DNA of 5,984 nucleotides, from positions 1-5,984 of the IMG/VR virus record IMGVR_UViG_2531839200_000012; one strand, given 5' to 3'. The position numbers are program-made. The DNA is from a virus. Lineage: Duplodnaviria > Heunggongvirae > Uroviricota > Caudoviricetes. Within the stretch, counting starts at the first letter, position 1. The number at the start of each line of letters is the position of its first letter. Below, piece after piece: positions 3,001 to 5,984 of the stretch.

Positions 3001-5984
3001 AGTTGCGGGCCACGGTCCGGCCACAAGGAGAATCAAAAGAGGAGAACCGCAGCCCGCAAAACGAAAAAGGCCGCGCAGTTGCGCAGCCTTATAAACCCTG
3101 GTTAAAATCCACACGATAAAAATGACAATGCAAGTATCTCATGCTGTTGCCCGAACCCACTCGGGCTTTTTTTTGCATGTAAAAAGGCTCCTGCGATGAG
3201 GAGCCTGGATATATGCCTAATCTCTGTATACAGCATGATGCCGGGTGCCTCCCGGTGAGTTCGGCCTGGTGCCACCAAACCCGCGTATTCTCGCTTACGA
3301 TCATCAAAGAGATCATACCGTTCACCAGTCGCCCCTCCGCACAGGGGGATTCACCATGCAGAAATTTTCTAACACATCTATTATCAGACCGGCAACAACT
3401 GACTGAATTGAGATGTATTTAACATTTATGAATCTCCGCCTGCTATTTTCACTGAGCTATTCTGAGTCAACGAAAAATAACTTCGCTGAATCCCCCTCCA
3501 TTATGACAGGCATTAGTTTTAATGGTTACAGTCATCCCCGTAATTTGCGCACTGAGAAGAAGAGACTGAAGATTCCATCTGTTGGTAAATAATTCTTTAT
3601 CACCCACTTTAACTGTAAAGGTATCGTCATCATTATATTTTGTATACTCCACCTTTCCAGTTACACAATCAGGCGTCGCCAGCGCACTTGCTGAAAAAAA
3701 TGAAAGCGATGCAGCTATTAATAATGTTTTTTTCATTTTACCCCCTCAACTGCTAATAGTTCTGCGCATCAGAATTGCCCCCAGAGTGGATGAATCCCAC
3801 AATATTTTATTGTGCGTAATCCCACGGACTCTTCCATCTGCCGGACACATAGAAGGAAACTCATCAGATGCCATTCTGGCAACTCGCGATGCATGATGAT
3901 GACAATTCAGTATTAATGCCACGCTTCCCAGAATTGCATTAATGCTTCCAAAAGAAATTCTTCCTACACGAACAGAGTCTTGTCCATGATAGTCAGGCAG
4001 GACGCTACTCAACCTTCCCCAGTTCAATGTAAGATCAACATCTTCAGCAGTCATTACATAAGAACGCCCACTGAGATCATCCAGTGTTGTACGAAATCCC
4101 CTCTGTATTTGCCGAAAACGTAAAGCTTCAGCTGTCACAGTAACAAACCGTAACATCGCTCTTGCCACAGACTGCGTCAGTGAGGTTCCACTATGCGACA
4201 TTAAATCCAGATAAGAAGTAGTCAACGAATGGCGATTTATCTGCATCCCCGTACGACTGATCCCTGCAACACGCTGTAACGTGGTATAGCTACTGTCACC
4301 AGACAATGTAACCGCTGTTGTACCTGGAAAGGTAACATGTGAAAAATCAGCAAAGCGATAAAAAACATTATTTGTCCTGTTAACAAATCCTGTCACATAT
4401 AAATTATTTCGTTCAACAATAAGCCGTAGATTATTAAACCGCCCTTCCTCTGGATCTATCCCTCTGACATCAACTGCAAACAAATTATCCCCTGTGCCAC
4501 TATCAATCATCAGTAAAGACGTACCTCCTGATGAAATAGTCTGTAATGGAGTACCTATTGCAGAGCGAATGACATTCAGCGAATCTACATACGTCTTTGC
4601 AGTCGAGAAGTCTAAGGTAAATTCCTTCGCCACCACATTAACTGAAAAGATAACAAAGAAAAAAGTTAGCACTCTAAAAATAATTATTTTCATATTACAC
4701 AATACTCCTTGAGCACCATACGATAACTATATTCTTGACATCCTCCACGCCCTGAAGGACGGCGTTTTACGGCGCACCGGATAAACGTAACAATAACGTA
4801 ATGAAAATGATAATCATATTCAAAGAGAGCTGCAACCTTAACATATCTGGTCAGATCTCATGCGACTACTTGACGTACGTAGATAACAACATTTATTGAT
4901 ACACAGGATGTTACGGACATAAAAAAGCCAGCCACTGGGGGAGGCTGGCAAACTCGTAGAGCAAAATGCTGTTACGCAAACTTCGTTACAGGGTCATCCT
5001 GCAATACAAAAAATACACAATATTTAGAAAACTAATAGTGCCATGTGCAATTTTTAAGATTTTGTTATTAATTGTGGTCGCACCTTCCTTTCTGTGTACT
5101 TTCCGTATAGCTCACAGGATTCTGGGTACAAAAAAACCCGCGCATCGGCGGGTTAAGCAGCGTGGCAATGTAACCACTCTTATCATGATATGCAGATTTT
5201 TACGATCGTAAACTATTTTTTCGCTGATAAAATACAGAGGTTCTCCCTCCCGGCAATTCACGCTCAACATACCGATCCATCTCAAGCCTCACTCCCAGCA
5301 TCATCAGCATGCCTTCAACAATCCCCTCCGCTTTGTGAAGGCGTTTACCTATACAGGTGTCAGAGCACCCATGTTTCCGTGCCAGCGCCATGAACGTCTC
5401 CCCCAACACGTAATAATCAACCAGCAAGTCATGCAGATCGCTGTTGTTCCTGTTAAGGCGAGCCATACACCCGCATATAATCATCGCGTCATCGTCACAA
5501 CACTGTGGACGTGATTTTACTTTTTCGGGGATCAGTCCCTTAAATCCGGCAGCAATGGGCGACCATGTAACATCCTCATGGTTATTTGCCGCCCATGCCC
5601 CCCAGCGCTCAAGAACCTGCCGGATATCACGCATCAGTATCTTTACCCCATCCGCGATGAACCATAAGGACGCCATTGACGACGGCGTGCTTTTTCCCTT
5701 CTTTATCGCCAATGTATTTTCTGACTGTGGCACGATTGCAGTTCAGTATTCGGGCTACCTCGGTCTGATTTCCATATGCCTCAAGGAGCATGTCAGGAAT
5801 GGTTTTTACTGTGAACGTCATGCGGCCTCACTTCTGCTGTTTCGCAGGTCTTTAAGTTTCTGCTGATACTTCGCCTTGATCGCCCTGCATTCTTCGACAG
5901 TCCAGCGATGGCGGTTATGGTTCGATTCGATTTCGTCTACTGCTTCCTGCCCGATGCGGTTAATCAGTTCGACGCGATACGGAA

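Follow-up and report, generated by a model that had tools for sequence, protein, structure and literature searches.

The 5,984-nucleotide stretch of phage DNA analysed here (IMG/VR record IMGVR_UViG_2531839200_000012, positions 1 to 5,984; hereafter the window) carries on its minus strand a hairpin between an intrinsic terminator and the leader of the sialate-esterase gene nanS-p, in a lambdoid late operon that also encodes Shiga toxin (Stx). This hairpin is a real base-paired structure kept by selection, as revealed by compensatory substitutions across homologs, and it is locked in position to the terminator. The structure is more likely to reside in the late minus-strand transcript than in plus-strand RNA. 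Judging from position and from analogy with known systems, the most plausible class of function would be that of an mRNA processing or stability element of the late transcript antiterminated by Q, a reading to which we assign a probability of roughly 0.4. The hairpin and its immediate surroundings are as follows.

3090..3067, minus strand: intrinsic terminator, the second on the sense strand, with 10 pairs (7 G-C) and the loop AACU
3060..3066, minus strand: U tract of the terminator plus single-stranded linker, UUUUUCGUUUU, continuous with the first stem U
3059..3003, minus strand: whole hairpin, between the terminator and the nanS-p leader
3044..3059, minus strand: 5' arm, initially annotated as 3059..3047 (UUGCGGGCUGCGG); RNAfold pairs 3058..3044
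3019..3043, minus strand: pyrimidine-rich apical loop, 25 nt in the 15-bp model and 31 nt with 13-nt arms
3003..3018, minus strand: 3' arm, initially annotated as 3015..3003 (CCGUGGCCCGCAA); G3011, U3012 and G3017 are in G-U wobbles
2980..2972, minus strand: nanS-p Shine-Dalgarno (SD) sequence, GGGGAGGAA, with the start codon ATG at 2969..2967

The U tract of the terminator extends to about 3060, and the hairpin begins where it ends.

A base-paired structure conserved among homologs

The initial annotation described 13-nt arms that pair fully only in sense RNA, a loop with two CUCCU motifs and an SD sequence about 20 nt further on, all of which our analysis recovers. Segments 3059..3047 and 3015..3003 form 13 contiguous pairs on the minus strand with wobbles at U3051-G3011 and G3050-U3012, and the helix predicted by RNAfold comprises 15 pairs (3058..3044 with 3018..3004), including a third wobble, U3045-G3017. 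The minimum free energy (MFE) of the sense RNA is -29.8 kcal/mol against -16.6 +/- 2.7 kcal/mol for 200 dinucleotide shuffles, none of which folds as well (z -4.88). Plus-strand RNA of the same interval opens into an internal loop at the positions that become C-A and A-C, and its MFE is -20.7 kcal/mol (z -2.70). One CUCCU motif, at 3044..3040, contributes its first C to the extended stem; the other lies at 3030..3026, and 22 nt separate the end of the stem from the SD. As a bare DNA inverted repeat the hairpin is not exceptional, since the window contains 17 inverted repeats of at least 11 nt, several similar-sized ones being intragenic, and a single sequence therefore proves little. What lifts it above chance is the G+C-rich stem, the intergenic position, the folding z-score and, above all, the pairing conserved in homologs.

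About 240 loci that include the nanS-p start were collected by distant BLAST searches against phages and against complete Escherichia coli genomes, by IMG/VR pattern scans anchored on terminator or loop sequences, and by a scan of species-representative genomes anchored on the NanS-p N-terminus (6 loci). They contain 38 distinct hairpin sequences. A query of terminator plus hairpin matches 2,457 places in 1,125 of 5,426 complete E. coli genomes (about a fifth), with a query coverage of at least 80% in 383 of the matching genomes; the scan with a loop 15-mer returned mostly unrelated metagenomic contigs. Every occurrence of the hairpin has the conserved terminator on one side and a nanS-p-type gene on the other, whether the prophage is Stx1, Stx2 or non-Stx, in strains of enterohaemorrhagic, enteropathogenic and extraintestinal pathogenic E. 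coli. The terminator, a short AU-rich linker (typically 4-6 nt past the U tract, none in locus L061b), the hairpin and the nanS-p leader thus form a module that accompanies nanS-p in lambdoid prophages with and without Stx. The terminator is the left end of the module; 5' of it two unrelated sequence types alternate, either an AgvB/AsxR-type sequence or another hairpin-terminated element.

A covariance model of the family scores strongly just once in each locus, in every case where terminator and nanS-p adjoin, and gives no second strong match in about 660 kb of related loci. The weak extra matches (12.5-16 bits overall) comprise an unrelated hairpin at 9096-9154 of locus L018 (about 15 bits, E 0.05; also in L079), the reverse strand over known sites (13-16 bits) and the shortened copies of L142 and L061 (12.5 bits). 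The locus L133 of E. albertii (about 600-760) keeps a homologous terminator, directly followed by a different 7-bp hairpin, AUCUGCC-ACU-GGCAGAU. A second GGCCUUUUUU remnant lies after that hairpin, and the nanS-p-like gene of this locus is diverged, its protein starting with MSINRYDIV.

The stem occurs in several forms, the last two of which are divergent but occupy the same place.

Window type: 15 bp with three G-U pairs
933W type: 8 bp, a 1x1 U-U mismatch and 5 bp
Type 0: 8 bp, a 2x2 U-U mismatch and 4 bp
phiO153/L132 type: 12-13 perfect pairs
L032: lower stem ACUGGC/GUCAGU
L061b: 7-bp lower stem with a new upper stem

Covariation across homologs, named as a check in the initial annotation, is present. 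In a 28-sequence alignment with a 14-pair structure, 88.6% of the cells assigned to pairs are indeed paired, compared with 31-44% when the partner is slid to other registers. Both-sided (compensatory) changes are found in 5 of the 14 pairs, a number reached by one of 500 shuffles; the 9 both-sided change cells and the covariation score of 0.144 (0.114 +/- 0.006 in shuffles) are reached by none. Between the window and the 933W and phiO153 alleles about one third of the arm positions differ, no less than in the flanks (72.8% identity overall), and nearly every arm change is neutral for pairing (C-G to U-A, G-C to A-U, U-G to U-A, G-U to G-C). The loop ranges from 11 to 27 nt across alleles, with insertions and deletions of 2, 6 and 15 nt, not all of them multiples of three. 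Because the loop is free to vary in length and sequence, the stem must be the selected part. A coding role was rejected for the small open reading frames of this region (2959..3114 on the minus strand, 2955..3119 and 2963..3094 on the plus strand), given these loop insertions and deletions and the unrelated loop sequence.

As for the strand, one-sided changes are of the G-U type (sense) in 11 cases and of the A-C type, which gives G-U on the antisense strand only, in 5 (one-sided binomial about 0.1). The sense RNA is the more stable one in 29 of the 38 variants, which are not independent of one another, with a mean of -21.1 versus -18.9 kcal/mol. The difference is strong in the window-type allele (-29.8 versus -20.7 kcal/mol) and nearly nil in the common 933W-type alleles. 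These counts indicate that the asymmetry is mainly a trait of the window-type allele, and that the family leans towards the sense strand, though not decisively. The initial annotation had taken the asymmetry as a sign of selection on RNA structure in the late transcript; selection on pairing stands and the sense strand is likelier, but the asymmetry itself is weak across the family. Upon mitomycin C treatment nanS-p has been reported to rise by 1-2.4 logs together with stx (PMC10462455), and this co-induction fits expression from the read-through late transcript.

Possible processing or stabilization of the late transcript

In a lysogen, most transcripts of the upstream moron, started at Pstx1 and at the promoter of the STnc100/PasD-like small RNA (sRNA), would end at the terminator, so that the hairpin would be made essentially only in read-through (Q-modified) late RNA. 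A role in processing or stability might then take two forms. In the first, an endonuclease of the RNase E type would cut the single-stranded linker (G-U↓A-U-U) and leave the G+C-rich stem 0-3 nt from the new 5' end, where it would shield the nanS-p/lysis segment against decay that depends on the 5' end and give this segment a fate separate from that of the stx mRNA. In the second, RNase III would cut the stem itself. In most alleles the linker reads CGUAUUG or CGAAUUG, a match to the R-N↓W-U-U motif of the RNase E type that lies 0-3 nt ahead of the stem. Cleavage at a GU↓AUU motif of RNase E has been demonstrated experimentally elsewhere in this late transcript, within StxS (Sy et al., PMC7547250).

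A comparable layout is present in phage lambda, where a long hairpin comes immediately after the late terminator tR' (44,778-44,871, locus L137; about 30 bp, within 1-2 nt of tR'). The 163-nt fragment of lambda that contains both folds at -61.6 kcal/mol (z -6.5). Both cases combine a lambdoid late operon, a terminator read through with Q and a stable stem-loop within a few nucleotides of it, before the next late gene. They differ in that the lambda hairpin has about 30 imperfect pairs as against 13-15 here, and the terminator here is not tR' but the one that ends the stx/sRNA moron. In lambda, the hairpin after tR' is presumably a place of RNase III processing. Processing sites of RNase III are reported for the Q-dependent late transcript of that phage (Daniels et al. 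1988, Virology 167:568, as cited in PMC7547250). The hairpin also resembles the class of the ompA 5' untranslated region stem-loop and T7 R1.1, in which a G+C-rich helix heads an mRNA segment after a short AU-rich single strand and a conserved stem is joined to a free loop. Function of the ompA type needs the helix at most about 4 nt from the 5' end; the candidate RNase E motif here, in most alleles, is 0-3 nt ahead of the stem. The early RNase III sites of T7, with two helices of about 10 bp around an internal loop, are unlike the hairpin described here.

We therefore favour processing or stability on the grounds of the expected read-through-only synthesis, the stem base placed 0-3 nt past an RNase E-like linker, and the tR' layout of lambda. 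A promoter scan of the terminator-hairpin interval detected no sigma-70-like site upstream of the stem on the sense strand, and the 5' end of a primary nanS-p transcript was rejected as an explanation on that basis.

Several observations weigh against a processing or stability role. The RNase E-type motif in the linker is low in information, and the commonest allele, of the L132 type, lacks it (UCAUUUCUU). With 15 contiguous pairs in the window, 8 bp plus mismatch plus 5 bp in 933W and 12-13 perfect pairs in phiO153/L132, the stem falls short of the roughly 20 bp of classical RNase III substrates, although it is within the range of minimal ones. Moreover, the lower half of the stem is very G+C-rich, the resemblance to lambda is architectural only, with no similarity in sequence, and the strand asymmetry alone falls short of statistical significance. 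No 5'-end, 3'-end or stability data for the hairpin site were found in the literature. Finally, the nanS-p homologs of loci L131 and L136 are preceded by AT-rich sequence that lacks both terminator and hairpin, so the module is not essential for nanS-p.

A more specific proposal is that Stx and other lambdoid prophages use the hairpin as a dedicated switch, at which RNase III or RNase E severs the toxin/sRNA moron part of the Q-dependent late transcript from the part with the nanS-p/lysis genes. This we consider doubtful. If it were true, the two halves of the transcript would have different half-lives, which would set how much toxin is made, and when, relative to esterase production and lysis. 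In a variant of the same proposal, the cut-out hairpin, CU-rich loop included, could survive as a small RNA and titrate SD-like sequences.

Less likely explanations: translational control, insulation and others

An alternative role for the hairpin, which we regard as unlikely, is translational control of nanS-p by the pyrimidine-rich loop, either as an anti-SD sequence acting on GGAGG or as a standby platform for S1 and the 30S subunit, that is, a single-stranded platform 20-35 nt upstream of a partly sequestered SD. Pyrimidines account for 67-81% of nine loop variants of 21-27 nt and for 82-86% of the shorter loops of L032 (11 nt) and of the window (inner loop, 14 nt), and this richness, which speaks for such a role, is the sole property common to the loops. 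Short CUCCU or CUUCC strings would be able to pair with GGAGG, and the partial burial of the SD in a small local hairpin makes a nearby helper or competitor element conceivable.

2976..2989, minus strand: small local hairpin, U2989-C-C-C2986 paired with G2979-G-G-A2976, from MFE structures and SD unpaired probabilities

However, the CUCCU motif is not conserved, being CUUCC in 933W and CUCUC in type 0, while the loop of L032 reads UUUGUGUUUUC. We predicted pseudoknot-free MFE structures for 44 leader variants, each spanning the terminator and reaching +33 of nanS-p. The hairpin is an independent domain in all 44, and pairing between loop and SD is absent from the MFE structure of every one of them. 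Where the SD is paired, it binds the adjacent UCCC or start-codon-proximal and coding sequence; in the other leaders it is largely unpaired. The energy of the loop-SD duplex lies within the range of shuffled loops of the same composition for all 16 loop variants (share of shuffles as good or better 0.10-0.79), and the distance between hairpin and SD also varies, from about 22 nt to about 35 nt. The anti-SD repressor hairpin suggested by the initial annotation is therefore unsupported by leader folds, motif conservation and duplex energies alike, and selection acts on the stem rather than on the loop. Structured leaders of the isrK-orf45 type, for which the leader of Gifsy-1 is cited as an example of SD sequestration (PMC4825925, as referred to in PMC7547250), are similar in being prophage late-region leaders past a read-through terminator with pyrimidine-rich sequence near the SD. 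They are unlike the present case, in which loop-SD complementarity is neither conserved nor better than chance. The only isrK signal in Rfam is a 12-bit match on the terminator.

Many alleles, though not every one, are predicted to form the 4-bp UCCC/GGGA hairpin, which masks the 5' half of the nanS-p SD and would be more plausible than the big loop as a means of translational tuning. Its own loop differs by allele (GGCC, GACC, GCCA or GGAAA). An AT-rich palindrome at 2949-2972 (ATCATAATGTTTAAA / TTTAAATGTCATTAT) overlaps the nanS-p start codon. Locus-tag order suggests that ECs2972 is nanS-p in Sp15, the Stx1 prophage of strain Sakai. In the Tree et al. 2014 supplement this gene ranks 48th among the coding sequences recovered by Hfq crosslinking, and the region between ECs1206 and ECs1207 (stx2B to nanS-p) takes 10th place among the intergenic ones. 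Part of the Hfq signal of ECs2972 and of ECs1206-ECs1207 could come from the hairpin leader.

It has also to be considered whether the hairpin is an insulator accessory to the terminator, which would pause unmodified read-through polymerase, offer a C-rich, G-poor loop to Rho, or both. Leakage from Pstx1 and the sRNA promoter into nanS-p and the holin/lysis genes would thereby be reduced in lysogens, with Q-modified polymerase unaffected. The constant fusion of hairpin and terminator agrees with this idea, and so does the presence of the holin gene about 2.7 kb downstream, which would make leakage costly. In 933W and related alleles the 27-nt loops are C-rich and G-poor (9-11 C and 2-3 G per loop), a composition shared by the leader that follows in the 933W type, and the 15-nt arms with a 25-nt spacer have the geometry of lambda tR'. 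We nevertheless judge an insulator improbable, as no U tract follows the stem (AACUGUUGAGG in the window), so that it is not itself an intrinsic terminator, and its long loop is atypical. The window-allele leader after the hairpin is purine-rich and does not resemble a Rho utilization (rut) site, and loading of Rho does not require a conserved helix.

The hairpin was rejected as an intrinsic terminator in its own right. It shares the G+C-rich stem and the arm and spacer lengths with terminators such as lambda tR', but it has no 3' U tract in any allele, the stem being followed by UCCUUAUUUUAC or UCCUCAUCUGAC in the 933W types and by CUCCAUAUCUGA in the phiO153 type. In most alleles the loop is 21-27 nt long, as against about 3-8 nt in terminators, and the hairpin was not called by the terminator scan.

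Less probable still is a DNA-level palindrome devoid of RNA function, which might be a quasi-palindrome whose complementarity is maintained by template-switch repair, a recombination boundary of the nanS-p module, or an upstream element or protein site of the anti-sRNA promoter on the plus strand. Template switching at quasi-palindromes can mimic compensatory change, and the hairpin lies at about -57 to -113 of the promoter of the plus-strand EcOnc03/AgvB-type sRNA (45-110 bp off). A mosaic junction forms the left border of the conserved module, and rearrangement junctions are located inside the hairpin loop in L061 (first copy) and L142. Against this, the G-T and T-G mismatches are stable, the window allele with three of them being identical in several hundred E. 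coli genomes, and T-T mismatches or a bulge in most alleles argue against perfecting at the DNA level. L032 retains the pairing without the sequence, unlike a protein site, and the module is kept where unrelated sequence replaces the AgvB-type gene. That the structure acts in a plus-strand RNA antisense to nanS-p is very improbable, for although such RNA folds better than shuffles (z -2.7) and is the more stable strand in 9 of the 38 variants, the promoter and terminator scan of the window revealed no plus-strand promoter or terminator framing the hairpin, which lies upstream of the anti-sRNA start, and the three wobbles of the window allele become C-A and A-C mismatches.

In phage PA28 (L009), an IS3-family insertion in the leader, about 7 nt upstream of the position of the SD core in intact alleles, replaces the SD and the nanS-p start. 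Judging from sequence, the nanS-p leader appears to be a recurrent breakpoint.

Neighbouring genes and significance for Stx phages

A Pfam search identifies the minus strand of the window as the sense strand of the lambdoid late operon, with the transcript running through Q, stx1AB, nanS-p and the lysis genes. The closest phage records to the window are Stx1a phages, at about 93% identity; for the hairpin region alone the closest is Shigella phage 7888 (96%). The genes and regulatory RNAs are located as follows.

5733..5203, minus strand: antiterminator Q (Pfam)
4702..3749, minus strand: Shiga toxin A of the stx1 operon (Pfam)
3736..3470, minus strand: Shiga toxin B (Pfam)
3388..3175, minus strand: STnc100/PasD-like sRNA, full length (Rfam gathering search, 190.7 bits)
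3114..3173, plus strand: AgvB-family anti-sRNA (Rfam, 56.6 bits)
2969..1035, minus strand: NanS-p, with DUF1737, SASA and DUF6645 (Pfam)
between nanS-p and the holin gene in listed order, minus strand: DUF1378 and DUF826 genes (Pfam)
319..107, minus strand: P21-type holin (Pfam)

The STnc100/PasD-like sRNA is located directly 3' of stxB and has its terminator at 3206-3185. The AgvB-family anti-sRNA, the sequence of which equals EcOnc03 (Tree et al. 2014 supplement), is convergent with it, their 3' ends lying about 2-10 nt apart. The promoter region of the anti-sRNA on the plus strand (about 3058-3108) has a likely -10 element TAAAAT at 3103-3108 and a -35 element TTGCGC at 3079-3084, and it overlaps the sense-strand terminator. 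Since the -35 element is within the terminator stem and the U tract of the terminator forms a plus-strand A tract at the UP-element position, the same DNA apparently serves as terminator and promoter on opposite strands. In L139 (about 1400-1500), L140, L006, L007 and L032 the AgvB/AsxR gene is absent, and an unrelated segment replaces it between STnc100 and the terminator. This segment contains a G+C-rich hairpin, GCCCGCGCTGGGAGACGCGGGC, flanked by A/T runs and an antisense promoter-like TTGCGC-N18-TATTAT. It has no match in Rfam and may represent another convergent anti-sRNA family.

A gathering search of the window with Rfam 15 returned only STnc100 and AgvB, with no family for the hairpin. 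A permissive search of 2940..3110 gave matches of at most 19 bits, none of them centred on the hairpin; most fall on the neighbouring terminator, and four overlap the 5' arm at one end by a few to about 20 nt. In the literature, including a 2026 survey of structured RNAs around Pas sRNAs, we found neither the hairpin nor a nanS-p leader element nor RNase III in Stx late RNA. The hairpin appears to be undescribed so far; in kind it is an ordinary cis-acting leader stem-loop.

The interval between stx and the lysis genes sets the amount of toxin that Stx phages make before burst, and previous work has shown it to be rich in regulatory RNAs, among them StxS, STnc100/PasD and the AsxR/AgvB anti-sRNAs. 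A conserved structure made only in antiterminated RNA would be an easily mutable candidate for uncoupling the expression of toxin, esterase and lysis genes. If the hairpin is a simple stabiliser, it would be an ordinary element, still worth annotating and keeping intact in reporter constructs.

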